A DNA stretch of 64,000 nucleotides from Prevotella sp. (GCA_023665755.1 JAMPDF010000001.1:344181-408180); one strand, 5' to 3'. Shown: positions 4,965 through 45,632, counted from the stretch's first letter. The notes: generated from the letters alone by a model not told the origin. Made by a program: numbers and translations.

Positions 4965-5087
4965 TTAATTCCTCTTCTTTCTTATTTTTTTCTCTATCCA
5001 ATTGACAACTTCATACATTAAAAAAGAAATTATAGCCAGGACAATTACACCCATCATCACTAAATCCATATTAAAAGTCTGTAATAC
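4965..5087 (-). pseudogene. Detached 3' end of the ABC permease gene (..LQTFNMDLVMMGVIVLAIISFLMYEVVNWIEKKIRKKRN*), separated from the gene body by the prophage insertion.
   Basis: It matches the characteristic C-terminus of SsuC/ThiX-type permeases. It is in frame with the permease body at 44964.. if joined at the shared AATAC core. Its stop codon lies 1 nt from the substrate-binding gene start. Confidence 0.55.
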
Positions 5088-5215
5088 AAAAAGCAAAAAT
5101 AGCAATTATTTTTAGTTTTTTATAATTTTTTTATGCTAAAATTGAATTTTTTCATTTTTTGAATTTCGGTCCTTATTATTATATAGTATATTTGAACAAA
5201 AAAAGAGCATTATGC

Positions 5216-5244
5216 TTTACTTGTCAAGCAATATGTGGTATAAT
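5216..5244 (+). promoter_or_regulatory. Sigma-A-type promoter with an extended -10 (TTTACT-17-TGgTATAAT) driving the rightward four-gene operon.
   Basis: -35 at 5216..5221 and -10 at 5239..5244. A CTTGTCAAG palindrome overlaps the spacer. Confidence 0.4.
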
Positions 5245-5276
5245 GTTAGTGTAAATAAATGAAAGAGGTATTAAAT

Positions 5277-5531
5277 ATGACAAGAAAAATGGTAAACGTT
5301 ATTTATAGAAATAATAAATTAGGAAACATTTCTATCGATAGCAAGATTATTTCAAGATTGTATACTGAAGCTGATAGTGATATGACTTATGCAAACGCAT
5401 ATATGAGCGAATTGCAAAGAGATCAAAAGAAAGAAATTGAAAGCCAAATAATGGAGAATTTAATTAACGGAAATTATTTGGTTGCTGAAGAATTAATCAA
5501 CAATGAATATTCTTGGGTTTTAAAAAAATAA
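5277..5531 (+). CDS. Hypothetical phage accessory protein.
   Basis: ORF with RBS GAAAGAGG before the ATG at 5277. The ATG at 5259 has no RBS. Confidence 0.4.
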   Translation: MTRKMVNVIYRNNKLGNISIDSKIISRLYTEADSDMTYANAYMSELQRDQKKEIESQIMENLINGNYLVAEELINNEYSWVLKK

Positions 5532-5548
5532 TTAAAGGAGGAAAAGAA

Positions 5549-5830
5549 ATGAAAAAAGTTATTTTAAAAAAAGAAATCTTAACAAGGAATAATATAATAG
5601 ATTTTACTTTCTATGAAACAAAGGAAAAAGAAGAATATTGTTATTCTTCTTGGGATGAAGCAGTAAATAAATACAACGAATTACTGCAGAATTGCAAAAA
5701 AGAGGCAAAAAGTGATTTGCCTAATAAATGGCTTTGCGAAAAAAGCCATTATTACGATGTATTAATCGTAGATGAAGATGGTATAGCATATGGACAAAAA
5801 ATAATGTCTGATGGAACAATTATTAAATAG
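5549..5830 (+). CDS. Hypothetical protein.
   Basis: RBS AAAGGAGG 8 nt before the ATG. 93 aa. Confidence 0.45.
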   Translation: MKKVILKKEILTRNNIIDFTFYETKEKEEYCYSSWDEAVNKYNELLQNCKKEAKSDLPNKWLCEKSHYYDVLIVDEDGIAYGQKIMSDGTIIK

Positions 5831-5840
5831 GAGAAAAAAT

Positions 5841-6347
5841 ATGAAAAATTTAGAAAAAAGCATTGAATTTTTAGAAAAAAAAGATTACACCATATGGGTA
5901 GAAAAGGATAGGCAAACATCTTCAATTGCCTATCCAAGACATCTAGGCAATTATGCCTTTATTGTTATTGCAGATGGCGACAAAATACCATCACTAAAAA
6001 CAAATGATGAAAAAGATGTTATTCGTTTTGCATTCGATTTATGGGAAGAGGACATCCAATTTGAAATGGATGGAAACAACAATTATATGTTCCAATTGGA
6101 TCATAACGTTTATAAAGCTCATAAATATTGTGAAAATGATTCTATCGAAAATCCAAAAGGTTTCTGTGGCGATTCTACAGAAATTTCTTACAAAGATTAT
6201 GTTTATGCAAAACAACACGAACTAAACTTTGAAGAAATGACATATGGCGAAGAACGTGAAATATATTCATACACATTTAGTGTTTCGGATGAAGATGGCG
6301 ATTATGAAACTAAAGATAGTTTCTATAGTTTCGTAAAGGTATGGTAG
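5841..6347 (+). CDS. Hypothetical protein.
   Basis: RBS AGGAGAAAA before the ATG. 168 aa. Confidence 0.45.
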   Translation: MKNLEKSIEFLEKKDYTIWVEKDRQTSSIAYPRHLGNYAFIVIADGDKIPSLKTNDEKDVIRFAFDLWEEDIQFEMDGNNNYMFQLDHNVYKAHKYCENDSIENPKGFCGDSTEISYKDYVYAKQHELNFEEMTYGEEREIYSYTFSVSDEDGDYETKDSFYSFVKVW

Positions 6348-6847
6348 GCGATGCTATGTTATCTAATAGAGAGATAAATAGAATCACTTACCTAATTAAC
6401 GAATTATTGGCAGACTTTAGTTCAGGTTTGCCTTTAAATTCCAAAATAGTCATTATATATGACAAAAATGGCAACATCGAAGATTATGATATGCTAGATG
6501 ATGTTAATGATGATGGCGCAGACAATATTTTCTTTGATGAAGAGGATGTTCACCTTCCTTTTGTCGCTTATGAAGACGAAGAATACGAAGAAACAGATAG
6601 GAAAACAGCTCTTATTTATTTCTTGACCTGTATTCATCCTGATTTGCCATACAATGCCTGCGTTTTAAAGGCAATAAGGCTCATATTTGACCTTAGCCAA
6701 CAAGAAATGGCAAATAGATTAGGCATTGCAAAACAGTTCTATAATCAAATGGAAAACGGCACAAGACCTGTTTCAAAGAATGTAATAGAAAAAATTGCAA
6801 TGTTGGATAATTTTAGTGAAAAAGATTTCAAAAAAAAGGGCGAGTAG
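6341..6847 (+). CDS. Protein with an acidic N-terminal domain and a C-terminal XRE-family HTH domain.
   Basis: HTH signature LSQQEMANRLGIAKQFYNQMENGTRPVS near the C-terminus. Its start overlaps the upstream gene by 7 nt. Confidence 0.5.
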   Translation: MVGDAMLSNREINRITYLINELLADFSSGLPLNSKIVIIYDKNGNIEDYDMLDDVNDDGADNIFFDEEDVHLPFVAYEDEEYEETDRKTALIYFLTCIHPDLPYNACVLKAIRLIFDLSQQEMANRLGIAKQFYNQMENGTRPVSKNVIEKIAMLDNFSEKDFKKKGE

Positions 6848-6875
6848 TAATTCTACTCGCTTTTTATTTTTCCTA
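6838..6875. terminator. Bidirectional rho-independent terminator between convergent operons.
   Basis: GCGAGTAG..CTACTCGC hairpin flanked by an A-run and a T-run. Confidence 0.5.
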
Positions 6876-7734
6876 AAATAAACATTTTGTTGAAAAATTT
6901 GTTCAAAATGTTCTTCTTTTCCTTAAATGCACCAACTTTATATCGCATTATTATTTTTTCACCTTCATTATATCCAGTATAACAATTAACAGCTATTAAT
7001 AACGTTCTCCAAACTGTGTCATAAACTCCTTGCCATCCACCTTTTAACACTCCCAATCCAATTGATGCAAATAAGCAGGAAAACAAGACAGAAAAAGCAA
7101 TTTTAGAGGTAGAATCACGGGCTATAACTTTATTAGGCTCAAAGCTTCCTATTTCGTCTGTAAACGTCTTTTGACCAATGCTAAATGATCGTTCATCTAT
7201 TTTTAAGCACTTTACATTTTTAGTTGTTATATCAAAATCATTATTTGGCATCTCTACTACATTGTTTTTTTCTGGTATATTTAAATATTTGTAGTATTTG
7301 AGCCACTCGATACATTTGTCTTTTTCTTTAATTAGTTCATTTCTTTTGTTTTCTTCTTTCGCTTTTGAAATTTGAATATTTAATTTTTCAATATACGCAT
7401 CACATCGATAGATTAAATTTTCAATTTTAATCATATCATACAAATCATTTGTTAAAAATGTGTTATCAACTGTTCTAAAATCTGTTTTTACGTCATCTTC
7501 TAACGCTATTACTTCGTCTAATTTACTTGTAGCATTTCTCCCTACTGCAATGAAAGCAAAATAAGGAGTTAATGTCAGAACCTGTGTAGTTGCAATATTG
7601 CTCCAAAATGATGGATTTTTTAATGTGTCAAAAGAAAAATCTAATGTTATTAAAGATAATAGTATGTTGACAAATAATACTGCCAATATAACTAATCCAA
7701 TGATGAAATACAATGTTTTATCATTTTTGTTCAT
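6853..7734 (-). CDS. Membrane protein with an N-terminal TM helix and C-terminal TM helices.
   Basis: 293 aa. Hydrophobic segments at both ends. It is the last gene of the minus-strand block. Confidence 0.45.
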   Translation of the reverse strand: MNKNDKTLYFIIGLVILAVLFVNILLSLITLDFSFDTLKNPSFWSNIATTQVLTLTPYFAFIAVGRNATSKLDEVIALEDDVKTDFRTVDNTFLTNDLYDMIKIENLIYRCDAYIEKLNIQISKAKEENKRNELIKEKDKCIEWLKYYKYLNIPEKNNVVEMPNNDFDITTKNVKCLKIDERSFSIGQKTFTDEIGSFEPNKVIARDSTSKIAFSVLFSCLFASIGLGVLKGGWQGVYDTVWRTLLIAVNCYTGYNEGEKIIMRYKVGAFKEKKNILNKFFNKMFILGKIKSE

Positions 7735-8297
7735 TCTTCCATTTCCTCTCTTTCTTTGCGAAGTTCATCCCTTCTTCTTTGGATATCTTCGATTTTTCTT
7801 GCCTCTTTGTCAATTTCTAAATCATATAAATATTTGCGATTGATTGCAGCATCTACAATTTGCAGACATAAACCCATACAAATGCTGAATATAATTAACC
7901 AGATATGTTTTGCAATATCAAGCTTTGGCATTTTATTCAATAGATCCTGGATCAATTGAACGAATGCAGCAAGAATAGTAACGGGTATAAGTGAAACAAT
8001 TCCCCCAATAAATGTTTTAAATGGGCTAGGTTTTAAATCTAAAATCTTTTTTTTCAAGTGTTTAGCCAAAAAAACTAAATAAATTAATCCTGCGATGCAC
8101 CATGTGATAGATAGCGTTTCTTTTGCAGTCATTTCAATTTTTTTTAAAACGAATAAATTTTCTGCAATCAAACCCATAGGAAAGAAATAGAGGAATATAA
8201 AACCTGAAAAATAAAGTATTCGCCTTGAAATATGCGTTTTAAGACTACTTAACTCGTTTAATTTCTTTCTTTTCATCTTCTTTTGCCTCTTGTTCAA
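7731..8297 (-). CDS. Polytopic membrane protein (about 4 TM helices) with a charged coiled-coil C-terminus.
   Basis: 188 aa. Its stop overlaps the downstream gene start. The tail is rich in E/R/K. Confidence 0.45.
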   Translation of the reverse strand: MNKRQKKMKRKKLNELSSLKTHISRRILYFSGFIFLYFFPMGLIAENLFVLKKIEMTAKETLSITWCIAGLIYLVFLAKHLKKKILDLKPSPFKTFIGGIVSLIPVTILAAFVQLIQDLLNKMPKLDIAKHIWLIIFSICMGLCLQIVDAAINRKYLYDLEIDKEARKIEDIQRRRDELRKEREEMEE

Positions 8298-8745
8298 CGA
8301 TTATAGCGTTTGAATCAGGTAATTGCTGAGTTTCATTGTTTTCAATTGCTGTGAGAGCGTCTTTTGTATCTTCTTTTATCTTTAGGATATCTTCTACTAA
8401 CAATTTAGCAGATGCTTGTAAATTTGAATTATTAAAAGCGATGGTTAAAGCTTCATTTTGCTTTTTTGCGATTTCTACTGATTGTTCTAGTGCTTTTGCC
8501 ATTTTAAGATATTCTTTTTTCAACTCATCTACAGTGTTTTCTGCATTTACCACATATTTATCATACATATTTTTAATCTCTTTAATTTCTGCACTTTTCT
8601 TATCTAATTTAATTGTCAGTTTTGTTTTGGCTACTTTATCTATTACTTTTGAAAAAATAAAATAAAGAACAGAACCAACTAATCCTATGTTTAATACTCC
8701 GCTACTTTTTACAAATTCTAATACTTGATTTAATATTTCTTGCAT
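8245..8745 (-). CDS. Single-pass membrane protein with a long coiled-coil.
   Basis: TM segment near the N-terminus (IGLVGSVLYFIFS). The remainder is K/E-rich and helical. Confidence 0.4.
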   Translation of the reverse strand: MQEILNQVLEFVKSSGVLNIGLVGSVLYFIFSKVIDKVAKTKLTIKLDKKSAEIKEIKNMYDKYVVNAENTVDELKKEYLKMAKALEQSVEIAKKQNEALTIAFNNSNLQASAKLLVEDILKIKEDTKDALTAIENNETQQLPDSNAIIVEQEAKEDEKKEIKRVK

Positions 8746-8758
8746 ATTTTACCTCCTC

Positions 8759-9070
8759 TTATGCTAAAAATCTTTTGCTATCAATATATTCAGCTAATTT
8801 GATAACTGTATTTTTTAAATTTTCTACTTCTTTTTGCAATTTTTCGTTTTCTTCTTGTAATTTTTGAATTTGATTGCCTAATGTTGTTTCTTGATATGGT
8901 ATATCTTCTAATTTTTCAAAAACAAACTCTTTATCTTGCGCATCAACACACAAAAATACGCTATTATTTATTGCTTTCTGTTCTGCATTTAATATGCTCA
9001 TCTTTGTACTTTCTTCAAATCGTTTTTTATATTTCATATTTTTCTCCTTATAAAAACACAGGTCTTTCAA
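8759..9070 (-). CDS. Small coiled-coil protein.
   Basis: 103 aa with a heptad-rich C-terminus. Confidence 0.4.
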   Translation of the reverse strand: MKDLCFYKEKNMKYKKRFEESTKMSILNAEQKAINNSVFLCVDAQDKEFVFEKLEDIPYQETTLGNQIQKLQEENEKLQKEVENLKNTVIKLAEYIDSKRFLA

Positions 9071-9077
9071 CCTGTGC

Positions 9078-9446
9078 CTATTCTACTTTCCAAACCAAAT
9101 CTATTATTTCATTTCTACAGTCCCAAATATCATACAGAGTTCCATCGATGCCACAAGTAAGGTGACCTTCTACACGTATGATGTAGATACCTTTAGGATT
9201 TTGGTTTAAAAATTCTTCAATTGTAAAGCCATGATAGCTTTCTATTCGCACCAACTTAAATACTTCATCTAGTAAATGCTTATAACAGCATACGCATAAC
9301 TCTTCGCACTCAAATAATTCGCCAATTAGTTCTAATTTGTGTTTAGTATCGTAATAATCAAGCCCTACACCAAGTGATATCGCCCTGCAAACACAGTCTT
9401 CTTCTCTTTTCCCAAGTGGTTGAAGATTCAAGAATTTGTAACGCAT
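9078..9446 (-). CDS. Cys-rich hypothetical protein.
   Basis: 122 aa. CVC..CVCC cluster. Stop/start overlap with the upstream gene. Confidence 0.4.
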   Translation of the reverse strand: MRYKFLNLQPLGKREEDCVCRAISLGVGLDYYDTKHKLELIGELFECEELCVCCYKHLLDEVFKLVRIESYHGFTIEEFLNQNPKGIYIIRVEGHLTCGIDGTLYDIWDCRNEIIDLVWKVE

Positions 9447-10177
9447 TATTCTTCTTGGCTTTCCCCTTTGATGATTTCATAGAAATAAATGCATAGCTTT
9501 TCGCTAGGTGATACTTTTATATCGTCATCTTCAAAGAATTGTTTAGCCATTTTAATATAAGTATGTGGATCGTTAGCAATATTCTTGTGAATACTAATCA
9601 TCATTAAATAGACAAAGTAGAACTCATCTTCGCTAAATTCTTCAAATTTGACACCCGTTTCTTCTGCTTTTTTGACAACCATTTGCTTTGAAAGATGAAA
9701 GATATCTTTTGACTTTAATTTTTCAGCAAATTCTTTTAGCTCTTGCTTGTATTCTTCTTCCCCATCTTTGTAATCACTTGAATACTGATCATAATTGCCG
9801 TCATATGCTCTATCATATCCTCTATAATCTTCATATCTATGTGGTGAATTAATCATGCCATATACTTCATATTGCATAGGTCTTGGATAGTCTCGATATT
9901 GTTCCATATGACGACCATCGTTCCCACCATAATTGGCATTGTCACGACCATCATATCGACTATCATATCTTGAATTATTTGCTCTGTAATCCATTTCTTC
10001 CATAGCACGGTCTCTCCCACTTCTTGAAGAAACATATCCACCTCTTGAGCCATACGGATTTCTTCCATCTTGGCTATATCTTCTGTCTCCGCCTCTTTGG
10101 TCTCGTCCATCCATAGAACGATCACGACGACCTCTTCTGCGATCGATTCTGTCTCTTAAATATCTGTTGTTAGCCAT
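9446..10177 (-). CDS. Protein with an Arg/Asp/Tyr/Gly-rich, intrinsically disordered N-terminal half and a C-terminal folded domain.
   Basis: 243 aa. RRGRRDRSMDGRDQRGGDRRY... low complexity. The nested ORF at 9853..10125 is an artefact of the repetitive DNA. Confidence 0.5.
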   Translation of the reverse strand: MANNRYLRDRIDRRRGRRDRSMDGRDQRGGDRRYSQDGRNPYGSRGGYVSSRSGRDRAMEEMDYRANNSRYDSRYDGRDNANYGGNDGRHMEQYRDYPRPMQYEVYGMINSPHRYEDYRGYDRAYDGNYDQYSSDYKDGEEEYKQELKEFAEKLKSKDIFHLSKQMVVKKAEETGVKFEEFSEDEFYFVYLMMISIHKNIANDPHTYIKMAKQFFEDDDIKVSPSEKLCIYFYEIIKGESQEE

Positions 10178-10179
10178 AA

Positions 10180-10620
10180 TTACACGACTTTCTCAACGTT
10201 TACGACAACGTTGTTGATAATTGAGCCTACACCAGGATTTAAAACAGTAATTGTTTTAGCTAAAGTAGAATCTGTGCCTAAAATACAAGTATTATCTACC
10301 AAGAAATAATAATCGATTGTTAAATTTCTAATTTCTGTTGTTGCAGTTGTGATAGTTTCTGTTGCTAATGCTCCTGGAATGATCACTCCGTTTTCAGCTA
10401 ACTGTAATGTCACATCACCTGCTGCAGTACCTGAGACATTAGCATTTAATGTCAAATGGTAAATTCCTTTATGATTTAGTGATATGCTATTGCCATTAAA
10501 CGCAAATGCGGTAACTCCGCAATTTTTTCTACAGAATTTGCGGTAAACTGCTCCCAAATTTACAATACCATCAGTCACAACAGTTTGACTAGCGGTATTT
10601 TTTACCCCCAATAATAACAT
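10180..10620 (-). CDS. BclA C-terminal-domain-like (TNF/C1q-like) protein with no collagen-like region.
   Basis: AFAFNGNSISL...LTLNANVSGTAAGDVTLQLAENGVIIPG...VVVNVEKVV aligns block by block with the B. anthracis BclA C-terminal domain (YAFNSGGISL...ITVIANTATASVLGGLTIQVNGVPVPG...SIIIEKVA). Confidence 0.5.
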   Translation of the reverse strand: MLLLGVKNTASQTVVTDGIVNLGAVYRKFCRKNCGVTAFAFNGNSISLNHKGIYHLTLNANVSGTAAGDVTLQLAENGVIIPGALATETITTATTEIRNLTIDYYFLVDNTCILGTDSTLAKTITVLNPGVGSIINNVVVNVEKVV

Positions 10621-10700
10621 TTTTTTGTCTCCTTTTTTTAAAAAATAAAGAGCATAGAATTAACTATGCCCTTATAGGATAATTAATCCTTTTCTCTCCA

Positions 10701-11507
10701 TTATTGAATTGATGCGCAACCGCAATTTCCACTATAACCTACACCTGTTGGATTGCCGTAGCAACAATTTGGATTAGGTACTACATAAGCTGGAATTGGG
10801 CAATCTCTGCCAAGTCTGCGAATGAGTTCTGCAGTTTGAGCTTCTTGATTAGCTGCAAAGTATGCGTTTTGAGCTTGTTGTGATGCTGCTAAATTTAATG
10901 CATTTACTTGTTGAGTTAATTCTGCAATACGTTCGTTCTTAGCTTCAATCTTATTTGCTACTAATTCTTCGTGTAATGCACGATAATTTGCATTTTGATT
11001 TTCAATTAAATCACGTGTATTCATGTTCATTGTGTTTTGCAATGCACATGTAGATTGAGCGATGTTATAGTTTACGCCATCTATTGCACGTTGAGTTTGG
11101 CAGCAACAATCTTGTAAACGATATCCTAAATCAGTAATTGCACTACGTGTTTCATAACCATTTTGCATGATTGCTGTATTTACACCACTAAATCCTTGAC
11201 AAAGTGTTTGTTGAATACCTGCTTGACCTAATTTTAAGTCATTTAGTGAACCTAAAACAGCACTGTTGTTAAATCCTGAAGCTACATCTGCTTGTGTTGC
11301 CATTTTTCCTAGTTCATAACCTACAAATTCGGAGCTACCTCCGCCATTTCCTGTTCCAAAACCATTTCCGTTTCTTCCCCAGCCAAAAAGTAAAGCAATC
11401 AAAATGATTCCCCACCATCCATCTGCAAATCCATTCATACCACCGTTATTGCCATTACTGCCACCAGTATTGATGACTTGTGGCATATCAGTTTCGTAAT
11501 AAGCCAT
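10701..11507 (-). CDS. Single-pass membrane protein flanked by Gly/Asn-rich segments, with a coiled-coil and a Cys-cluster C-terminus.
   Basis: 268 aa. TM WWGIILIALLFGW. GNGGG repeats. CCC and CC..C..C motifs. Confidence 0.45.
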   Translation of the reverse strand: MAYYETDMPQVINTGGSNGNNGGMNGFADGWWGIILIALLFGWGRNGNGFGTGNGGGSSEFVGYELGKMATQADVASGFNNSAVLGSLNDLKLGQAGIQQTLCQGFSGVNTAIMQNGYETRSAITDLGYRLQDCCCQTQRAIDGVNYNIAQSTCALQNTMNMNTRDLIENQNANYRALHEELVANKIEAKNERIAELTQQVNALNLAASQQAQNAYFAANQEAQTAELIRRLGRDCPIPAYVVPNPNCCYGNPTGVGYSGNCGCASIQ

Positions 11508-11565
11508 TAGAATTTTTTCCCCCTGTTAAAATTAATTTTAAAATATATTAATTCTGCATGTCGAC

Positions 11566-11859
11566 CTACAGATTAATACCTGATTGATTGAACATGTACA
11601 TCAAGGGATTTAAATTAATGCTATTTTGTTTGGCGTATTGTTGAACAAATTGTTGTGGGCTCATACCGCTTTGTTGCATTTGATTTTGAGCTTGTTTCAT
11701 TTTTTCAAGAGCAACTCGAATTTGTGGATTATTTGCTGCCATTTGTTGCAATTGTTGCATTATTTGATTAGGATTTAAGCCTTGTCTCATCATTTGTTGA
11801 ATCATCATCATTAGATTATTGTTCATTTTTGACCTCGCTAACTTGTCCTGTTTGACCAA
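11566..11859 (-). CDS. Gln/Met-rich low-complexity protein.
   Basis: 97 aa. Its start overlaps the upstream gene. Confidence 0.35.
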   Translation of the reverse strand: MVKQDKLARSKMNNNLMMMIQQMMRQGLNPNQIMQQLQQMAANNPQIRVALEKMKQAQNQMQQSGMSPQQFVQQYAKQNSINLNPLMYMFNQSGINL

Positions 11860-12241
11860 TTAAGGCAAATAATTTGTTAATTTCACCTTTAATAATGTCT
11901 AAATCTGATTTTCTTGCGTAATCGTCTTCTTGATTCATCTTTACAAGCTTGAAATGCTCAATTGAATACATACAGTTTGCATCTGCTCTTTTAATAAACA
12001 TCATATCGCTGTTTCTATCTTTGAGAAAAAATGTTTGATTTGCGCCAACAATATATGCTTTCGCATCTTCGATACCATTTACCATGTCAAAACCTATCTT
12101 TGGTTGTTGTTGTGCTTGATTTTGTTGTTGATAGTTTACGTTTTGTTGGTAATTTTGCTGATAATTTGGTTGGTAGTTTGGATAACCACCATAGAAATTA
12201 TAATTTGGTTGCATGTACTGATCCCCCTTGTACAAATGCAA
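11816..12241 (-). CDS. Protein with a Q/N/Y-rich prion-like N-terminus and a folded C-terminal domain.
   Basis: 141 aa. YQPNYQQNYQQNVNYQQQNQAQQQP. Confidence 0.4.
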   Translation of the reverse strand: MHLYKGDQYMQPNYNFYGGYPNYQPNYQQNYQQNVNYQQQNQAQQQPKIGFDMVNGIEDAKAYIVGANQTFFLKDRNSDMMFIKRADANCMYSIEHFKLVKMNQEDDYARKSDLDIIKGEINKLFALIGQTGQVSEVKNEQ

Positions 12242-12287
12242 TTATAACTTTTTATTTTTTCTTCACAATTTCATATTTGTGTCAATT

Positions 12288-12509
12288 TTATTTCGTTTTC
12301 ATTGCACAAATAAATTTCTTTATTCTTCTAATTACAGTACTAGTCGATATTCCTAGTATTTCTGCTGTAGCTTCAAATGTGTTTCTGGTACTTAAAAAGA
12401 CTGTATCCGCAATTTGATACAGTCCATTCTTGATACATATTTCTTCGATATATTCCTCATCAATTCGTCCATCTAAAATACGTAGTACTTCTTCACGAAG
12501 TCTTGGCAT
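12288..12509 (-). CDS. Small sigma-70 region-4-like HTH DNA-binding protein. It may regulate the downstream cargo block.
   Basis: 73 aa. TAEILGISTSTVIRRIKK is an HTH typical of sigma region 4 and ArpU-like regulators. Confidence 0.45.
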   Translation of the reverse strand: MPRLREEVLRILDGRIDEEYIEEICIKNGLYQIADTVFLSTRNTFEATAEILGISTSTVIRRIKKFICAMKTK

Positions 12510-12518: not shown

Positions 12519-15236
12519 CTAAAATTTCAAAATTTCCATATTTGTTAAAGTTGGAGCAAGTTCTTCTCCAATTTCTGTATTATCTACCATTTTGATGAAA
12601 TACAACTCTAATTCACTACTATTAACATTATGTTTAAAATGACCATATCCATCATTTGCCGTTCCAATCATACTAAATGTTGATGATATAATAGCAGAAG
12701 TTGAATCTACATCAAAATCGACAAAATATCTTTCATTGTTAATAGCAAATTTAAATCTATATCTTTCACCAATTTTAAATGTCCCACCATCACCGTCAAA
12801 AATAACGTATCTTTCTGTTCCTACAGTAGGAATAATATTAGTTGAAATTAAATTGGAACTTTGTTTTAATGGTGATAAATCTACAGATGTATGCCCAGCA
12901 GTTGGATTGTCACTATTTCCTATCACGATTTCTAAAGTTTCATTTATTAATTGAGCTTGCAAAGTTGATGCTAATACATTACCGCTTTCTAAGGGTATTT
13001 CCAAAATATCAAATTTGCCCAATGCTGGAATTATAGTATAAGTATATATCCCACTACCTGTGCTTGGAACATACATCAATGTTCCCATTATCATTCCTTC
13101 TCCATTGCTAGTATGAGCAAATAATGCTGTCGTAGATAATCCATCTTGTAATATAGTTGCTTTATAAATGCCACTTTGTTTAGATAGCATTATTTGAATA
13201 ATTTCTTCAATGTCTGAAAATATGCCTAAATCTTCAACTACACCTTTTAAAGAAATAGCATCTAATTCTTCTTGCGTTGCGATATCTACAGTTGTTTTTA
13301 CCCATGTTCCATCTGCAAGGTTGACTTCAATTTTGTATACGATATTGCCTTTAAAATTGCCAAATGTTCTCGTTCCTGCGGTTTCTCCTAAAATAGTATA
13401 GGCATCGTTTGAGCCTTCAGTATTGGCTTGATAAATGATTGTATTTGGATCATTTTGCAAATTAGTTAAATCATTGCCTGTAAATGTGCCATATGTTTCT
13501 GTTGTTGAAATATAGACAGTAGGTACGGTATATCCACCACCCGTTGAATCCATATATTCCTTTAATCCTTTAGATGTAATTGCTTTGTAGTCGTCAGTTC
13601 CTTCAATAATATCATCGTTTGTCGCAATTCTATTCTTTATTGTACTTGACGTTATATCAAAATATCTCCCATCAAATGATGTCGTATCTGAATTATACTC
13701 ACCTTCTCTAGTAATTGCTGCAGTTGTTTTGTCTACACCCATTTGATAATCACTATAGCCCAATCTCAGTTCCGTTCCATTACTCGTACTAACTGTTTTT
13801 TTAACCCATTTTTTAAAAATTATAACATATTTTGTCGAAAGAGAACTTAAGCCATCATATTCATAACCTTTAAATTTAATTTTATAAGCTTGATTCTTTT
13901 GACATAATTCTAATATTTTATTTTTATTACTAAATGCATCATTAATACTATTTAAATAAATGCCATCATTTTCTTCAATTTTAGCAGATAAATTCGCCAT
14001 TTCTTCTGTTATTGTGTTTTCAAGCCTTGTAAATGCATCATTTATGCTTGATTTTTCGCCATTTCCAGTAGCATAGTTCTTTGCAGTGTCAGCAATAATT
14101 GTTCCATTCAGTATCATTTCTTGAAAATTAGCAAAAGTAACAGTTGAGACATACTTGTCAGTGTCAGTTTCTCGCCAAATGCCTTGTCCGCTCTCATCTA
14201 TGCCACTTTCATCCCAAATATACATGATTAACCACGTTCCTATGTTTACGAATGCATAATCGCCTGGATTTGCTGTAGGATATGTGCTTGTTAACTCATC
14301 ATATGACAAGAAATCACCTTTATAGTGGTTTTCGCCACCACCTCCACCACCAAGAATTGATTTTAAACTTTGCAAAGTCACTCGATATGCCTTGTTTCCA
14401 CTATTGATAATGAAATAATCACTATCCGCAACTTCATTCGCAATTGCAATATCGTTAAATACCTCATTTAATTTAATACTACGCAATTCTTCTATTGAAT
14501 TTGAGTTTAAATTAATTTGCCTTTGTGCGTTTTGACTAGATTCATCTGTGTAATCTTTTGCAATTTGTGCATTTTCAGCAATTTGTTGTTTCAATTGTTC
14601 ATCTTTGGCTTGTAAAACAGTTATCTTACTGTTTGCCCCTTGAATTGACGTGTCAATGCTATCTAATTTTGCGGAAACAAGTGTTTTATTTACTGTAGAA
14701 ATAGGTACTTGGTCTGCTCTTACTCGATGTGGATTTTCAAAGTCCTGTCTATGACGATTTATATCGCTTTGTGCTTTTTCTACCACATCTAGGGCTTGTT
14801 GGTAAAATTCTTCTTCCGTCGTTGTTTCCAAATTTGGCTTAACATTCCGTCTTACGTACAAACATGTCACTGCAGTAGCATATACTTCGTTGGTTTCAGT
14901 ATTCTTTACCTCAAACGATACTTGCAATTGTCCTGATATATCCAAAATACGGTCTTCTTGCTTGAAACCATACTGATAAACGACTGTAGGAAATTCTACA
15001 TCTGCTCCACTAGCTGGATCCAAAGTTTCGATATAGTCCATTTGGCGATTGCTGATTACAAATCCATCTGATCGTTCAAATGATACCTGCACAATAGACG
15101 ATTCTACACTATACGGAACTAAAAGTTGTATAAAATCGACATTTGAACGTCCTGTAACAAGAAATGTGGTGTCTTCTTGCTTTAAAATCAAGCCATTTTC
15201 GTTTAAATATATCTTTGCTATATTCTCTGTTTTCAT
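12519..15236 (-). CDS. Large virion protein, probably a tail fibre or receptor-binding protein.
   Basis: 905 aa. Central coiled-coil and a GGGGG linker. Position after the tail genes. Beta-rich C-terminal part. Confidence 0.45.
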   Translation of the reverse strand: MKTENIAKIYLNENGLILKQEDTTFLVTGRSNVDFIQLLVPYSVESSIVQVSFERSDGFVISNRQMDYIETLDPASGADVEFPTVVYQYGFKQEDRILDISGQLQVSFEVKNTETNEVYATAVTCLYVRRNVKPNLETTTEEEFYQQALDVVEKAQSDINRHRQDFENPHRVRADQVPISTVNKTLVSAKLDSIDTSIQGANSKITVLQAKDEQLKQQIAENAQIAKDYTDESSQNAQRQINLNSNSIEELRSIKLNEVFNDIAIANEVADSDYFIINSGNKAYRVTLQSLKSILGGGGGGENHYKGDFLSYDELTSTYPTANPGDYAFVNIGTWLIMYIWDESGIDESGQGIWRETDTDKYVSTVTFANFQEMILNGTIIADTAKNYATGNGEKSSINDAFTRLENTITEEMANLSAKIEENDGIYLNSINDAFSNKNKILELCQKNQAYKIKFKGYEYDGLSSLSTKYVIIFKKWVKKTVSTSNGTELRLGYSDYQMGVDKTTAAITREGEYNSDTTSFDGRYFDITSSTIKNRIATNDDIIEGTDDYKAITSKGLKEYMDSTGGGYTVPTVYISTTETYGTFTGNDLTNLQNDPNTIIYQANTEGSNDAYTILGETAGTRTFGNFKGNIVYKIEVNLADGTWVKTTVDIATQEELDAISLKGVVEDLGIFSDIEEIIQIMLSKQSGIYKATILQDGLSTTALFAHTSNGEGMIMGTLMYVPSTGSGIYTYTIIPALGKFDILEIPLESGNVLASTLQAQLINETLEIVIGNSDNPTAGHTSVDLSPLKQSSNLISTNIIPTVGTERYVIFDGDGGTFKIGERYRFKFAINNERYFVDFDVDSTSAIISSTFSMIGTANDGYGHFKHNVNSSELELYFIKMVDNTEIGEELAPTLTNMEILKF

Positions 15237-33203: not shown

Positions 33204-33204
33204 T

Positions 33205-35335: not shown

Positions 35336-35342
35336 TTCCTCA

Positions 35343-35480
35343 CCTACTCCACATACAATGGCAAATTCCATCTCTTGCCATTGATAAAGATATATTTAGC
35401 TCTATCAGAATGCGTGCTTACTGTCATTTTGGTTAGATCAAAGTAAGCGAGTGCTTCTTTGTAGTTATTAATTTTTTTCA
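35343..35480 (-). CDS. Small protein (45 aa) that was not in the ORF track.
   Basis: ATG preceded by GAGGAGG. It overlaps the stop of the replisome organizer gene. Confidence 0.3.
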
Positions 35481-36355: not shown

Positions 36356-36364
36356 ATGTTTCTC

Positions 36365-37069
36365 CTATTCAGGACAGACCCAAACAGGACATCCTGAAAT
36401 TTTTTGAATTTCTGTTTTAAATCTTTTTGCATCTGAATTTCCATTTGATAGATGCAGCAAATAGATTTCTTTTATTTTAGAAACGTCTTGTTCAACAATA
36501 AATTTTTTGACGTTTTCTAATTCAAAGTGGGATTTAAATAATCGTTTTGCCATTACATTGGTCAATTTCCCACTTTCTATATTTTTTTTAGCGATATCAT
36601 GTGCATAATTGCACTCAATCATCAAGTAATTAATTTGATCAAATCTATTCTTGATGTAATAAGTATCAGTTGCAAATAACAACGTTTTATTTGTTACCCT
36701 GCTTTTCAAATAATACCCAACAGGTTCTGCGGCATCATGTTCTGTTGCAAAAGGAATAACATCAAATGTACCAATGATGTATTTTTGGTTTGCTTTGATT
36801 ACTTTTGCATAGTTTTTAAACTGTTCACAATCAAAGTTATCAAATGTTCCTTGCGTTGCATATACTTCTTTGCAATTCTTTAACAATTTAACCAGTGATT
36901 TAGCATGATCCATGTGTTCGTGTGTGACTAGGCAGGCATCAAAGTCTAACCTAGTCTTTTCACGAATTTTATTTAAAGGTATGCCACATTCAAGCAGTAA
37001 AGTTGTTTTTCCGTCAGTGACAGAGTAACAATTGCCTTTACTGCTTGATGCAAAACTTTCTATCCACAT
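36365..37069 (-). CDS. MBL-fold metallo-hydrolase (putative recombination nuclease).
   Basis: HxHxDH motif VTHEHMDHAKSL. It is adjacent to RecT. Confidence 0.65.
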   Translation of the reverse strand: MWIESFASSSKGNCYSVTDGKTTLLLECGIPLNKIREKTRLDFDACLVTHEHMDHAKSLVKLLKNCKEVYATQGTFDNFDCEQFKNYAKVIKANQKYIIGTFDVIPFATEHDAAEPVGYYLKSRVTNKTLLFATDTYYIKNRFDQINYLMIECNYAHDIAKKNIESGKLTNVMAKRLFKSHFELENVKKFIVEQDVSKIKEIYLLHLSNGNSDAKRFKTEIQKISGCPVWVCPE

Positions 37070-38013: not shown

Positions 38014-38015
38014 TT

Positions 38016-40016
38016 TTACTTAACCTCCATTTGTAGTTCTTTTTCGTTTTCTTTAACATATAATTTAATGAGTTGTGTATTTTCCAATTCATCAAATTTA
38101 GTCACACTTTCTGCGTTATCTATAAATATTGGAGCAATCGTTCCCTCAACTTTTTGCAAAGTTTTTATAATATCTAAACCAGCATTGATTTTTGCAGCAT
38201 TATTCGCATCATCAAATGGTACACCATCAATAGTGGCATAACATACTTCTTCATATCCACCATTAATTTGCTCTCTAAACATTGTGAAATTAACTTTGGT
38301 GAATAATTTGTTGACATCTTGTTCGATTAACTTCACTTTTTCTTTTAGGAATGATTCACATAGGTTTACTTTAACTATTGCTTGATTGTATTCATTAGAT
38401 AGTTGTTTTTGCTCCTGTTGTAATTCATTAATACGCTTTCTATTCGCAATATTGCTTTCATATCTAGATTTTCTGCCATAGTAGTCATCTAGTTTTTTGC
38501 TTTCTTGCATAATCGTTAAAGCTATATCTCCTGCGGAAGATGATTCACTCATCAATTGTTGCTTTTCTTCTCTTTTAGCAGCGATTTGATATTGAAGATG
38601 AATAATTTCATCTGTTGTTGACTTGAGGCATTGATTCTTTGCTTGCTCAAGTCTTTCTTCTGCTATAGTTAATTCTTGTTGCATTTCGCTAATTTTCGAT
38701 TGCATATTTATTGCTTCGATTTCATAGCTTCTTAAAGATAACTTTGAATTATTCAACTCATTTTGTATATTTCCATACTCAACTTTTAATTGCTTACCAT
38801 TTTCAATCGCTTTCTGTAATTTGTTCGCCTTGTCTAGGTTGAACATTTCTTTTGCGTGTTCAACTTGTTCTTGTGGCAATGCTTGTCCACAGGTAGGGCA
38901 AACTGTTTCGCCATTAAATACTGCGCCATCTATTTCAGCACATCTTTGATATGCTGTTTCAATAAGCTTGTCAAGATCTAAGATGCGTTCTTCTTGTCTT
39001 GATATAAGTGTTTCTGTATCTACCTTTTTCACCCCTATAGCTAATTTTTCGCCTTTTTTAAATTGAAGCGTTGTGGATAGATTTTGAACTTCTTCTTGAA
39101 GTTCTTTTAGTTTTGCACCATCATTTTCCATTTTCACTAATTTGGCTTGATGCAACTTTTCTTCTAACGCCAAAATTTCGCCATCTATCGCTTTTAATAT
39201 TGCAAGGTTAGTCTTTGTGTTCCTTTGCTCTTGAAGTTCCAAAATATAGTCTTTTTGGGCTTGAATTAACGTTTTAACGTCTTCTAAGCCACTTATATCG
39301 TCTTCCTCAGTTTCTGTATTGATCATAGATTGCAATTCTTCTATTTTGTATCCATAGGAAGGAATTTGCTTATTTGCTGTAGAAGCTGCTGCTTTGTATT
39401 TAGCTGTCAATTCTTCAATACTTAGCACTTTCAATTCCTCCAACAAAGGATACAAAGATGAATTTTTTTCTACTACATCTAAATTGGATACATCAGGAAT
39501 AGCCTTAAGCAACACCTCACGTTTTGTCTTTTTATCCATTTTGTTAAAGTAAAATGGGGCAGTGAGCATTTTGAAGGTATCTTCAGAACATAACTTGTCT
39601 ACTTCTTGTTGATATTCTTTTAACAATTTGGGCGCACCATCTTTAAAATAAGATGTTTCATGCCCTGTAAATGTGCTTTGTGTTTCACCGCGTTTTTTGG
39701 TGTATTTTTCACGTAGCACTTTTTTTAATTCCACATCGTAAGTTAACAATCCATCATCAACAGTGAATACAGCAGATACTGAATAATCAACATTGTGCAA
39801 GACATTGCCATTTGCATCAATTGGCTTAATGCTAAAATCGCTTGCCCCATTGCTGTTTTTGTTGAAAAGTAGCCAAAGGAATGCATCGACAATAGTTGTT
39901 TTACCTGTTGCATTGTCACCATAAAAGTTAACTGATTGATTTGCAAAATCGAAGGTTCTCTTTTTTATTCCTTTAAAATTCTGCAAAGTTAGATTTTTTA
40001 TTGTTATTTTTTTCAT
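38016..40016 (-). CDS. AAA ATPase with a long coiled-coil (SbcC/Rad50/RecN-like).
   Basis: Walker A GDNATGKTT at the N-terminus. About 350 aa of coiled-coil. ABC-signature-like C-terminus. Confidence 0.6.
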   Translation of the reverse strand: MKKITIKNLTLQNFKGIKKRTFDFANQSVNFYGDNATGKTTIVDAFLWLLFNKNSNGASDFSIKPIDANGNVLHNVDYSVSAVFTVDDGLLTYDVELKKVLREKYTKKRGETQSTFTGHETSYFKDGAPKLLKEYQQEVDKLCSEDTFKMLTAPFYFNKMDKKTKREVLLKAIPDVSNLDVVEKNSSLYPLLEELKVLSIEELTAKYKAAASTANKQIPSYGYKIEELQSMINTETEEDDISGLEDVKTLIQAQKDYILELQEQRNTKTNLAILKAIDGEILALEEKLHQAKLVKMENDGAKLKELQEEVQNLSTTLQFKKGEKLAIGVKKVDTETLISRQEERILDLDKLIETAYQRCAEIDGAVFNGETVCPTCGQALPQEQVEHAKEMFNLDKANKLQKAIENGKQLKVEYGNIQNELNNSKLSLRSYEIEAINMQSKISEMQQELTIAEERLEQAKNQCLKSTTDEIIHLQYQIAAKREEKQQLMSESSSAGDIALTIMQESKKLDDYYGRKSRYESNIANRKRINELQQEQKQLSNEYNQAIVKVNLCESFLKEKVKLIEQDVNKLFTKVNFTMFREQINGGYEEVCYATIDGVPFDDANNAAKINAGLDIIKTLQKVEGTIAPIFIDNAESVTKFDELENTQLIKLYVKENEKELQMEVK

Positions 40017-42745: not shown

Positions 42746-43087
42746 ATGCTAAAAAATAATATAAAATTTCTAAGAAAAGAACAAAAAATTACAATAAGAG
42801 ATTTAGAAGAGAAAGTACATATTAATAGAACAACATTATCAAGAATGGAAAACGGATTACAAAATATTAGTGATGAATATCTTCATACACTATCTAATTT
42901 TTTCAATGTGTCTACAGACTACTTATTAGGACTATCAGATATTCGCAATCCTGAAAAGGAATTGAATAAACAACAAGAATCAGATCCTATCTTCTTCTCA
43001 TTATATGATGAAGTAAAGGAATTAACTGAAGAACAAAAGGAGGAGATATTAGATATAATCAAAAAATTAAAAGCTTTTAAAAAATAA
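42746..43087 (+). CDS. cI-like XRE-family repressor.
   Basis: The HTH QKITIRDLEEKVHINRTTLSRMENG sits at the N-terminus. A TATAAT at about 42709 lies upstream. The gene is divergent from the early operon. Confidence 0.6.
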   Translation: MLKNNIKFLRKEQKITIRDLEEKVHINRTTLSRMENGLQNISDEYLHTLSNFFNVSTDYLLGLSDIRNPEKELNKQQESDPIFFSLYDEVKELTEEQKEEILDIIKKLKAFKK

Positions 43088-43116
43088 CGCATTATACATA
43101 TTTAGGAGGGGGAATA

Positions 43117-43317
43117 ATGTTAAAGGAGGCGAATTTAAAAAGTATCAATGGTATTGTTGTTAAAATAGACAATACTTTTTACATCGTTTACGACGAAAAA
43201 CTTAGTGATGGCGAAAAAGAAAAACTAATTAATTGTCTACAAACTCATATCAAACTAAACAGGTTTGATTTCAAACTCATTGGCAATGAAATCATTGAAA
43301 GTGAGGTAATAAAATGA
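43117..43317 (+). CDS. Small protein between the repressor and the integrase.
   Basis: 66 aa. RBS GGAGGGGG. It overlaps the integrase start. Confidence 0.35.
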   Translation: MLKEANLKSINGIVVKIDNTFYIVYDEKLSDGEKEKLINCLQTHIKLNRFDFKLIGNEIIESEVIK

Positions 43318-44750
43318 AAACAGTGCTCTACATAAGAGTATCAACTAAAGAGCAAGCCAAAGAAGGCTTTTCAATTCCGTTTCAAAAAGAAAAACTATGC
43401 AAGTATTGCGAAATGATGAATTGGGATATAGTCGATATTTATTCGGATGAAGGAATATCAGGCTCTACAATTGAAAAAAGACCTGCAGCAACACGTATGC
43501 TACAGGATGCAAAAAAGAAATTATTTGAAAATATATTAATATTAAGAGTAGACAGACTTTGCAGAAACACAAAGGATTTACTCGAAATTGTTGATTTGCT
43601 AAAAGAATACGACATAAGTCTAAATGCAATTGATCAACAAATTGACTATAAAACAAGCATCGGTAAAATGACGCTTACCATTCTAGGTACTTTTGCTGAA
43701 TTTGAACACTCTATCATTCACGAACGTATGATGGAAGGAAAAAGGCAAAAAGCAACTACAACAGGCATCAAGATGATAGGTAGACGTGTTCCATATGGAT
43801 ATGACTACATCGACAAAAAACTAATTGCTAATCAATTTGCACCAACAATTAAACTAATATTTGAAAAAGTAGCTGAAGGATACGGATATAATTCAACAGC
43901 TACTTTTTTACGCAAAAATAATGTGCCAACTATTGATGTGTTAGACTGGAATAGAAATCAGATAAAAAAGATTATCAATAATAAAGTATACATGGGTCAT
44001 TGTTGTGTCAAATTTGATAGAATTGAAGTTGTTGATGTAGTAGCGACAAACGTTGAACCTATTGTAAGCGAGGAACTTTGGCACAAAGCAAACGATATTC
44101 AATCGTTTAAAACTAAAAATGGCATCAAAAAATATGCCTATGATGATTTCATATTTGCTGATGTCCTCTACTGTTCAAGGTGTGGCTGGAAATTATCATC
44201 AAAGAAATATAAAAGAAAAGGAAAAAATAAGGATGATTATACATTCTACCGCTATTATAAATGCATCTACAACGAGTGGCATTTAAGCAATCCAGTATGC
44301 AATACTAAAATTGTAAATGCTGAAAAATTTGAAAAAGCATTTATTGAATTTATTAAGCAATACCATATCCAATTAAAGAAAGAGAAAAAAAAGGAAAATG
44401 ATCCTTCTTTTAATGATGATTTTTTGGAAAAAGAATTAGCAAATTTAGTAAGGCAAAAATCAAAATTATTGGATAAATATTTAAACGGCTTTATTGAGGA
44501 TGAGATGTACTTTTCTAAAAATAGCACATTATCAGAAGAAATTAAAAGTTTAAAAGAAAAGATTGAAAGTAAAAAGTATATTAATAAGGAAGAAAAAGAA
44601 ATAGATCTAAATTATTTGGAAAGCATAAAAGTGATATTAAGCGATATTTGGGAAATAATGAGCGATAAAGAAAAAAGAGTTTTTATATCGACAACTTTTG
44701 AAAAGATTTTAATTGATAATGGGCAAATAAAACAGGTAATATTTAGATAA
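43314..44750 (+). CDS. Large serine recombinase (phage integrase).
   Basis: Resolvase-type N-terminus MKTVLYIRVSTKEQ..GFSIPFQ. Recombinase and zinc-ribbon region (CSRCGWKL). C-terminal coiled-coil. 478 aa, at the prophage edge. Confidence 0.8.
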   Translation: MKTVLYIRVSTKEQAKEGFSIPFQKEKLCKYCEMMNWDIVDIYSDEGISGSTIEKRPAATRMLQDAKKKLFENILILRVDRLCRNTKDLLEIVDLLKEYDISLNAIDQQIDYKTSIGKMTLTILGTFAEFEHSIIHERMMEGKRQKATTTGIKMIGRRVPYGYDYIDKKLIANQFAPTIKLIFEKVAEGYGYNSTATFLRKNNVPTIDVLDWNRNQIKKIINNKVYMGHCCVKFDRIEVVDVVATNVEPIVSEELWHKANDIQSFKTKNGIKKYAYDDFIFADVLYCSRCGWKLSSKKYKRKGKNKDDYTFYRYYKCIYNEWHLSNPVCNTKIVNAEKFEKAFIEFIKQYHIQLKKEKKKENDPSFNDDFLEKELANLVRQKSKLLDKYLNGFIEDEMYFSKNSTLSEEIKSLKEKIESKKYINKEEKEIDLNYLESIKVILSDIWEIMSDKEKRVFISTTFEKILIDNGQIKQVIFR

Positions 44751-44751
44751 A

Positions 44752-44783
44752 CTTGACTAATTTGTAAAAATTTGTTATAATAT
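44752..44783 (+). promoter_or_regulatory. Consensus-like promoter TTGACT-17-TATAAT immediately after the integrase gene.
   Basis: TTGACT at 44752..44757 and TATAAT at 44775..44780. A hairpin plus T-run follows at about 44815..44880. Confidence 0.35.
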
Positions 44784-44879
44784 AATAGCAGTTAGAATTT
44801 CTAAGCTGTATACCTATGGCAGTGAATTAACGTTTAAACGATATGTAATATCGTCACCCATAGGGTTCTTCTTCTTATT

Positions 44880-45632
44880 TTAATAATAAGTATATGCAAT
44901 AAAAAAATCCAATTTCTTTTGTGAAGTTGGATTTTTTTTGTCTTTTGTCGCCCAGACAAATACCTGAGATCCGTACATAATTAAATAGCCTATTCCATAT
45001 CTTGATACAATAAATTCTCCTACAATAACACCTACCCAAGACATCCCAATATTGATTTTAACAATACTGACTAGATTAGTCAAATTAGCAGGTAAAATAA
45101 GTTTGGTTAAAATTTGCCATTTACTGGCTTTAAAACTTTGTAACATTTTTATTTTTTCTTCTTCTACTTGTACAAATGCACTATGAGCTGATATGATAGT
45201 GAGCACCAGTGAAATAGAAATAGCTACTGCTGTAATCCCCTTAATGCCTGTGCCTATCCAAATGATAATGATTGGGGCAAGTGCCGTTTTTGGAAGTGCA
45301 TTAAATACAACTAAAAACGGATCACATATTTTTGCCAATGTTTTATTCCACCAAAGAGCAATGGCTATCCCTATTCCTGCTAGTGTTCCAATGATTAGCC
45401 CTAGCATAGTCTCTAATACAGAAATGCCAATATGCTTATAGATTTCTTTTGTCTCAATATATCTTTTTAACAATGCCCCTATTTTAGATGGCCGGCTAAA
45501 TAAAAATGCATCAATAATTTCAAATCGAGAACATAATTCCCATGAAACAAGAAACACCACCAAGAGAAGGATTTGAGTGATTAAGACCGTTATTGCTTTC
45601 TTTCTTTTTTCAATTAAATATGGATTATTCAT
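44880..45632 (-). CDS. ABC transporter permease (SsuC/ThiX-like). Its 3' end has been replaced by phage-derived codons.
   Basis: Six-TM permease body. The last 17 codons (..KNPTSQKKLDFFIAYTYY) run into phage att-arm DNA. The true C-terminus is at 4965..5087. Confidence 0.65.
   Translation of the reverse strand: MNNPYLIEKRKKAITVLITQILLLVVFLVSWELCSRFEIIDAFLFSRPSKIGALLKRYIETKEIYKHIGISVLETMLGLIIGTLAGIGIAIALWWNKTLAKICDPFLVVFNALPKTALAPIIIIWIGTGIKGITAVAISISLVLTIISAHSAFVQVEEEKIKMLQSFKASKWQILTKLILPANLTNLVSIVKINIGMSWVGVIVGEFIVSRYGIGYLIMYGSQVFVWATKDKKNPTSQKKLDFFIAYTYY

Follow-up and report, generated by a model that had tools for sequence, protein, structure and literature searches.

Evidence for a Phage Integrated by a Large Serine Recombinase into an ABC Permease Gene of an Anaeroplasma-like Bacterium

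The stretch of DNA analyzed here, called the window below, comprises 64,000 nucleotides deposited as Prevotella sp. (GCA_023665755.1 JAMPDF010000001.1:344181-408180), and it carries the genes of an ATP-binding cassette (ABC) transporter in two pieces that are 40 kb apart. We consider it highly probable (about 0.93) that this operon was split by a temperate tailed phage of 39,885 bp, which used its own large serine integrase to recombine its attachment site attP with the bacterial site attB in the permease gene. A serine-recombinase prophage in the 3' end of the permease gene had been proposed from the sequence alone (hereafter the original prediction), and the proposal is now borne out by empty-site relatives, by the phage genes, by an integrase with three domains and by a second insertion in another genome, L092. 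As prophage-free references we used L001 (the contig encoding the permease P0001), L037 (a metagenome-assembled genome, MAG, of Anaeroplasma bactoclasticum) and L038, which are 89–92% identical to the window at the DNA level. The permease locus was surveyed in 80 related loci, one per species genome (80 species), and nucleotide and integrase comparisons were made with a collection of 50,697 phage records. Positions are those of the window, and the features are collected in Table 1.

Insertion boundaries and the split permease gene

Aligned by BLASTN, positions 1-10675 of L001 correspond to window positions 55631-44958 (89.8% identity) and positions 10673-15746 to window positions 5075-1 (92.4% identity); the two blocks are collinear and overlap by 3 bp. 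L037 (91% identity) and L038 give the identical 3-bp overlap at the same window positions. Because the alignments of all three empty-site references break at this one overlap, the core shared by the two ends is AAA, and the inserted element, counted with one core copy (5076..44960), measures 39,885 bp. A 3-bp breakpoint that recurs in three references and in the second, independent insertion of L092 is not due to chance. The break falls in the codon of Phe225 of the permease, from which it follows that the undisturbed permease has 260 residues and that the present open reading frame (ORF) is a chimera ending in 25 phage-derived codons (VWATKDKKNPTSQKKLDFFIAYTYY).

The missing end of the gene is found at the left boundary. 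The chromosomal fragment at 4965..5075 consists of 35 codons (NMDLVMMGVIVLAIISFLMYEVVNWIEKKIRKKRN) with their stop and the shared Phe codon, and the alignments with L001, L037 and L038 run through it without a break as far as 5075. Its stop codon (4965-4967) lies 1 nt upstream of the ATG of the binding-protein gene, as the original prediction had correctly read. The same source described a 40-codon orphan at 4965..5087; such a fragment does exist, while its chromosomal part ends at 5075 and the LQT codons counted into it are phage DNA. Joined at the Phe225 codon, the permease reads ...GSQVF/NMDLV... (the slash marks the junction) and is 94–96% identical to the 260-residue homologs P0001-P0007 over 100% of their length. 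A protein search gave many full-length homologs of ~260 residues. The aligned homologs all have ...GSQVFNMDLV... without LQT, and one of the closest, among P0001-P0007, is annotated as Anaeroplasma bactoclasticum. The Pfam profile BPD_transp_1, which the chimera follows only to position 146 of 184, is matched up to position 184 of 184 by the restored protein. A natural ending in KNPTSQ..YTYY was not seen in relatives; the VWATKDKKNPTSQKKLDFFIAYTYY tail was found only in P0008, a protein of the same organism that is identical to the window's own ORF; two deposited MAGs contain it, and the integrase has the neighbouring accession. This tail had been put at 17 phage codons containing a hairpin with a T-run, and of that description the hairpin (44901..44938) stands and the codon count becomes 25.

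The crossover itself had been placed in a shared pentamer, AATAC, that occurs at 5083-5087 and at 44959-44963 and was thought to restore a permease of 272 residues. The pentamer is indeed present at both places, and joining there keeps the reading frame, yet this join yields 263 residues, with a spurious LQT between V224 and F that none of the aligned homologs has. Furthermore, all three empty-site genomes put the break 9 bp (three codons) away, at the Phe225 codon, so that attB as recovered from the prophage-free relatives lies in the expected gene and not at the expected point. The AATAC of the left attachment site (attL) belongs to the phage arm, being conserved as xTCTGxxAxAC in the attP of the related viral contigs L118 and L120, and two AT-rich windows of ~30 bp can be expected to share a pentamer by chance. 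We therefore give a crossover in AATAC practically no credence.

Before the insertion the genes evidently formed one operon. In L001 the ATPase, permease and binding-protein genes stand back to back, and in 60 of the 80 related genomes the binding-protein gene directly follows the permease, in agreement with the earlier view that the gene at 3950..4963 and the genes at 44880..46359 belong together. By their Pfam matches and their contiguity in L001, the ATPase, the BPD_transp_1 permease and the NMT1/SsuA-like binding protein, which has a lipobox (LLFGC, read from the sequence), make up an importer of the NitT/TauT type (SsuABC/TauABC-like). A specific substrate could not be assigned with the NCBIfam equivalogs, all of which scored far below cutoff (e.g., SaoP 90 vs. 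295 bits, TauC 85 vs. 342); SaoP, TauC and SsuC are the nearest families.

One might also suppose that the junctions are a chimera of phage and bacterial contigs made during metagenome assembly, given a source that is apparently a MAG and taxonomy labels that disagree in the deposited records (Prevotella sp., Staphylococcus sp.). Against this, both junctions lie at the same 3-bp core and give a perfect gene when joined, the identical chimeric protein stands beside the integrase in two deposited assemblies, and the same boundary is seen in L092 and in L119, a trimmed prophage contig. Because of the L092 insertion and of the chimera/integrase pair in two MAGs, chance and assembly artefact are both, in our judgment, ruled out.

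The host flanks are ~91% identical to the Anaeroplasma bactoclasticum MAG (L037), and judged from this identity the bacterial host is an Anaeroplasma-like gut bacterium. The Anaeroplasma lineage is known as wall-less. The MAGs that hold the integrase and the chimeric permease (MCM1259671/2 and MCM1349925/6) are labelled Prevotella sp. and Staphylococcus sp., whereas the DNA on either side of the element suggests an Anaeroplasma-like organism. The deposited annotations do not set the 250-residue chimera apart from other ABC permeases, an error that lets it pass for an ordinary protein of this kind.

The integrase, its attachment sites and a second insertion

The gene adjoining the right attachment site (attR) encodes a large serine recombinase in which the catalytic domain covers residues 4-147 and the two further Pfam matches, PF07508 and PF13408, are both above the Pfam cutoffs. 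The protein aligns with the structure of the C-terminal domains of the A118 integrase (4KIS, residues 137-472), and its relatives by sequence in PDB are the TP901-1 catalytic domain (3e-27), the A118 C-terminal domains (1e-15) and SPbeta YokA (7e-15). It is predicted to catalyze the attP × attB recombination, with Ser10 in the motif YIRVSTKEQ, conserved in L092, as the putative nucleophile. The nearest integrases in the phage collection are only ~27–32% identical, and 25 kb of prophage sequence had no megablast match in the same collection. A scan of viral contigs with the single protein recovered only a 23%-identical relative, whereas an alignment-based scan found three contigs of 37.7–39.3 kb (L118-L120) with an integrase 63% identical to that of the window. 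Upstream of the integrase and on the same strand is a helix-turn-helix (HTH) gene of repressor type (Pfam HTH_3, 3e-14; a transcriptional regulator in PHROGs), so that a lysogeny module is present.

When the phage-derived halves of attR and attL are joined, the attP sequence on the plus strand reads ...TTTTGTCGCCCAGAC-AAAA-GTCTGTAATACAAAAAGC..., or in a longer form ...TTTTTTTTGTCTTTTGTCGCCCAGAC-AAAA-GTCTGTAATACAAAAAGCAAAAATAGC...; strings spanning the two sites are ...GCCCAGACAAAAGTCTGTAATAC... for attP and ...CCATATTAAATACCTGAGA... for attB. At the centre of attP a perfect 5-bp inverted repeat (CAGAC/GTCTG) flanks AAAA, with imperfect arms of ~25 bp; when one of the T/G-rich arms is reverse-complemented, 19 of 29 positions match (counted by eye). 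The features expected of the attachment sites of a large serine recombinase are thus at hand, namely a 3-bp shared core, inverted-repeat arms and the retention of these arms in L118 and L120. The attB lies within the conserved coding sequence ...YGSQVF/NMDLVMMG... of the permease and is conserved because a conserved protein motif is encoded there.

In L118 and L120 the integrase gene stands mid-contig. Next to it comes an uninterrupted site, ...GTTTCACAAG(A/G)GAA-CATCTGC(G/A)A(T/C)ACTAAAA..., beyond which lie a promoter and cargo genes. The reconstructed attP of the window and its flanks are collinear with these intact sites, and L119 ends exactly at ...CACAAGGGAA, the same boundary. The centre of the attP palindrome and the alignment with the intact sites agree on the dinucleotide AA at 44959-44960 and 5074-5075 (TT on the gene strand), which is for this reason the most likely crossover, inside the Phe225 codon. 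In the mechanism that we propose, the integrase would recombine attP with the attB of the permease, the strands being exchanged within this codon.

Among the 80 loci, L092 is the only one with a serine recombinase. Its permease is 76% identical to P0001 and its match ends at residue 228; the sequence reads ...YGSQVF/PCETKIKKGRKLP followed by a stop and runs directly into the gene of a 491-residue integrase on the opposite strand. This integrase is 63% identical to that of the window, is inserted at the same codon, and is preceded by homologs of the HTH repressor and of the 66-residue ORF (74 residues in L092) that overlaps the integrase start in the window. As far as the sequences tell, one and the same codon is the target of two diverged integrases, each in a host species of its own, which supports the pairing of integrase and attachment site. 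The contig L146 (1..4019; Logan ERR13983015) ends exactly at ...CCCAGACAAA, the core of the attachment site, the pattern expected from a branch of the assembly graph between the integrated form and the excised or empty-site form; its immunity region has four HTH genes as compared with one in the window.

Prophage genes and the DUF3800-I RNA

Family searches assign a head and packaging module and a module for DNA modification, replication and recombination to the prophage (Table 1), and a weak match to an ImmA-like peptidase was also obtained. The fusion of a ParB-like domain with a DNA methyltransferase, the PAPS-reductase-like protein and MT-A70 probably modify DNA or counter host restriction. 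The large ORFs at 12519..15236 and 15267..17684 and the membrane-protein ORFs at 6853..8297 match no family. Two membrane-rich ORFs (6853..7734 and 7731..8297) end the block of minus-strand genes beside a bidirectional terminator. Since the host is probably wall-less and no endolysin or holin family was recognized in 6853..12509 (minus strand), the phage may be released without a peptidoglycan hydrolase.

The left end, immediately beyond attP, carries a small cargo operon with a strong promoter, and its layout resembles that of anti-defence operons of the acr-aca type. Its conserved HTH regulator has a weak Aca2/YdiL-like match, and its counterpart in L118 (5604..6080) directly follows attP. 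In L118 (5540..6080) this HTH gene stands alone across attP, without the small cargo ORFs.

Table 1. Features of the transporter operon, the prophage and its attachment sites (aa, amino acids; PHROGs and Pfam values are E-values)
Feature	Position	Strand	Basis or remarks
Substrate-binding lipoprotein gene (NMT1/SsuA-like), 337 aa	3950..4963	-	Pfam NMT1 7e-19; NCBIfam SsuA_fam below curated cutoff
Orphaned permease 3' end, codons 226-260 and stop; last hydrophobic helix	4965..5072	-	Aligns with the C-termini of P0001-P0007
attL core AAA (TTT, Phe225, on gene strand)	5073..5075		Probable crossover dinucleotide 5074-5075; empty-site overlap, attP symmetry, L118/L120 attP
Prophage DNA	5076..44957		Absent from L001, L037 and L038
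Left-end cargo operon	5216..6847	+	Promoter 5216..5244 (10/12, TG extension); three small ORFs and HTH regulator
Cargo ORFs, 90/105/178 aa	5259..5531, 5513..5830, 5811..6347	+	Family search; no family match
HTH regulator of cargo operon	6341..6847	+	43% identical to L118 5604..6080
Bidirectional terminator between cargo operon (+) and long minus-strand phage block	6835..6865		Terminator scan, both strands
Head/packaging module	20351..27417	-	PHROGs, 1e-5 to 1e-58
Major head	20351..21229	-	PHROGs 2e-31
Scaffold	21253..21816	-	PHROGs 2e-42
Minor head	22318..24363	-	PHROGs 2e-26
Portal	24344..26032	-	PHROGs 5e-58
Large terminase	25984..27417	-	PHROGs 1.5e-5
DNA modification, replication and recombination module	27811..40016	-	PHROGs, Pfam
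ParB-methyltransferase	27811..28938	-	PHROGs/Pfam
PAPS-reductase-like	33649..34554	-	PHROGs/Pfam
MT-A70	34551..35054	-	PHROGs/Pfam
Lin1244_N	35468..36355	-	PHROGs/Pfam
Metallo-beta-lactamase-fold protein	36365..37069	-	PHROGs/Pfam
RecT	37069..38013	-	PHROGs/Pfam
SMC-like ATPase	38016..40016	-	PHROGs/Pfam
Lysogeny module upstream of integrase	42746..43317	+	HTH repressor-like 42746..43087; conserved 66-aa ORF 43117..43317 overlapping integrase start
Large serine recombinase (phage integrase), 478 aa	43314..44750	+	Adjoins attR; Resolvase (PF00239) 4e-36, Recombinase (PF07508) 5e-18, Zn_ribbon_recom (PF13408) 5e-7
Stand-alone small RNA gene	44753..44938	+	Promoter 44753..44781; RNA 44781..44902; hairpin and T-run 44901..44938
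Chimeric permease ORF (BPD_transp_1), 250 aa	44880..45632	-	Residues 1-225 native (44958..45632); 226-250 phage-derived (44883..44957)
attR core AAA	44958..44960		Probable crossover dinucleotide 44959-44960; empty-site overlap, attP symmetry
ABC ATPase gene, first in operon	45625..46359	-	Overlaps permease start by 8 nt; Pfam ABC_tran 1.5e-35; L001 ortholog 244 aa

The 207 bp from the integrase stop to the core of the attachment site are filled by a small RNA gene. Exactly one Rfam family is found in the whole 64 kb, DUF3800-I (RF02969), with 72.8 bits against a gathering score of 44.2 over the full model (1-115). The RNA is preceded by a near-consensus promoter (TTGACT-17-TATAAT) with a TG extension. 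The terminator stem of the model aligns poorly, to AT-rich sequence, and a hairpin with a T-run 35 nt further downstream probably serves as the RNA terminator. Read from the minus strand this hairpin is again a terminator, and it folds with -17.2 and -13.2 kcal/mol on the two strands (z-scores of -7.1 and -6.1).

In the paper that introduced DUF3800-I (Weinberg et al., 2017, PMC5737381) the RNA is described as conserved in structure, ending in a 3' terminator and associated with genes for DUF3800, and its function is left without a hypothesis; no function has been assigned to the RNA in the literature that we found. DUF3800 has an RNase H-like fold and occurs in type VII retrons as well as at some Cas12 loci (PMC7736814, PMC10910872). 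In viral contigs, a scan with a core pattern gave 34 contigs with the RNA, and all 20 that were checked pass the Rfam threshold. The genomic context was surveyed by hand for ~10 of these 34 loci: in most of them the RNA is followed within ~15 nt by the gene of a DUF3800 protein of ~229 residues, and the pair lies beside lysin genes near the prophage end. A DUF3800 gene neighbours the RNA in L118, L011, L032, L014, L016, L022 and L024, and a Streptococcus satellite shows a same-looking layout of RNA and DUF3800. The RNA also lies within about 200 nt of tRNA genes in the viral contigs L022, L029, L035 and L034. The window RNA is like its class in having its own promoter and then a probable terminator, in accessory prophage DNA near the element's end. 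It differs in that it has no DUF3800 neighbour, and in that the GC-rich terminator normally abutting the core is missing and is probably replaced by the hairpin 35 nt downstream. No match to DUF3800 (PF12686) was found by Pfam in the 30 prophage ORFs, and when the entire window was searched by tblastn with two DUF3800 proteins, E exceeded 1.

The slot between integrase and attP varies among the related phages. In L118 (4500..5349) it holds promoter, RNA and DUF3800 gene; in L120 (4458..4520) and in L092 it is empty; and L146 (3810..4019), from another sample, has the RNA-only layout of the window. Window and L118 are ~80% identical over the promoter and the RNA core, and the alignment resumes just past the DUF3800 stop and continues through attP, so the window cassette looks like the L118 cassette minus ~750 bp. 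A tie between the RNA and the integrase or attachment site was considered and rejected, as most viral loci have the RNA beside lysin and DUF3800 genes and not beside an integrase, and the phages of L092 and L120 integrate at the same site without the RNA. Quite tentatively, and with the odds rather against it, the slot may be a site of gain and loss for DUF3800-I cassettes, in which a solo RNA might function alone, for example as a defence or immunity RNA or as the partner of a protein encoded elsewhere. If this is true, the natural variants of the slot would be a ready-made genetic series for studying the function of the class. A variable cassette offers a comparative handle on an RNA class that has been without a known function since 2017, and we regard it as the most interesting residue of the analysis.

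Consequences for the host and comparison with known systems

Through the insertion the permease loses its last 35 residues, including a hydrophobic helix, and gains 25 hydrophilic residues encoded by the phage; from this the transporter is expected to be inactive in the lysogen. The bidirectional hairpin (44901..44938), just inside the phage, probably halts transcription that arrives from the ATPase gene; because this hairpin is stable on both strands, the operon transcript could end there. On the other side, the phage genes of the left end (5259..6847) are oriented so that they lead away from the binding-protein gene, and a minus-strand promoter scan between the terminator at 6835-6865 and that gene returned only matches at chance level. 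Lysogeny thus probably knocks out an importer of the sulfonate/taurine family, a testable consequence of phage carriage. Upstream of the ATPase gene (46360..46510, minus strand), the terminator of a preceding P-type ATPase gene occupies 46448..46425; the promoter scan recognized no sigma-70-type promoter in the remaining 65 nt, and Rfam gave no riboswitch upstream of the operon.

Excision by the integrase together with a directionality factor would restore the 260-residue gene exactly. This raises the idea of a reversible switch (active lysogeny), in which regulated excision without lysis would return the transporter when its substrate is needed. Related phages hitting the same codon in two host species point to a stable association, and there are precedents for elements of large serine recombinases in genes: A118 integrates in comK, SPbeta in spsM and skin in sigK. 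However, there is no evidence of regulated excision here, a conserved coding sequence is a common, stable attB for serine integrases without any adaptive explanation, and only one of the 80 species representatives has an insertion at the site. We consider such a switch improbable, and an ordinary lysogen remains the preferred reading.

Several points weigh against that reading. The exact 2-bp crossover within the 3-bp identity is derived from symmetry and alignment, and the loss of transporter function and of binding-protein expression is argued from sequence. Moreover, the promoter scan also misses the native promoter of the operon, and a negative scan carries little weight in an AT-rich genome. 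An exact search with a 23-mer of this phage's attP gave no match in viral or metagenome contigs, while the 16-mer core gave 14 matches in viral contigs, the two inspected being unrelated chance matches. No recombination directionality factor was identified in the prophage, and no tail or lysis protein was recognized by the Pfam and PHROGs family search of its ORFs, which leaves the completeness of the virion gene set unproven.

The last three of these points, together with the apparent loss of the DUF3800 gene relative to L118, would also suit a decaying prophage that integrated in the same way, no longer excises or forms particles, and has cost the host its transporter for good. This is unlikely, though less so than the switch. 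Long ORFs are densely packed on the minus strand without the fragmentation that decay would bring, the integrase has its full length and its complete set of domains, and both attachment sites retain the core and arms matching the intact attP of the relatives. The 39.9 kb of the element are comparable to the 37.7–39.3 kb of related complete viral contigs, and missing matches for tail and lysis proteins are expected of phages of a poorly sampled, probably wall-less host.

A phage integrated by its own serine recombinase thus remains the best account, and it yields a mapped integrase with attP, attB and the probable dinucleotide of the crossover, from a host group that has hardly been studied, the Anaeroplasma-like mollicutes. 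Such pairs of integrase and attachment site are raw material for genome-engineering toolkits and for the prediction of prophage boundaries.

In comparison with known systems, the window integrase has the same three-domain architecture as the large serine recombinases of the A118 (comK) and TP901-1 type. In these phages the integrase gene stands beside attP, and a short attB inside a protein-coding gene shares a few bp with attP at the crossover. The window element differs from them in its target, the 3' end of an ABC permease gene, in its host lineage and in its attP and attB sequences. With SPbeta (SprA/YokA, spsM) and skin (SpoIVCA, sigK) the shared feature is a gene that is split by a large-serine-recombinase element and that precise excision could rebuild. 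Their excision is developmentally regulated and the directionality factor SprB is known, whereas in the window element neither regulation nor a factor was identified; unlike theirs, its insertion removes only the last 35 codons and also separates a downstream gene of the operon. The staphylococcal Ccr recombinases (SCCmec, rlmH/orfX) likewise have the 3' end of a conserved gene as their target. The best NCBIfam similarity of the window integrase is to CcrB (1e-46), where its 159 bits against a cutoff of 900 show that it is not a member; moreover, SCCmec is a cassette that preserves its target, while the window element is a tailed prophage that truncates it. Overall, the element is a standard large-serine-integrase lysogen in a coding sequence, which brings a new phage and a new pair of integrase and attachment site rather than a new kind of system.

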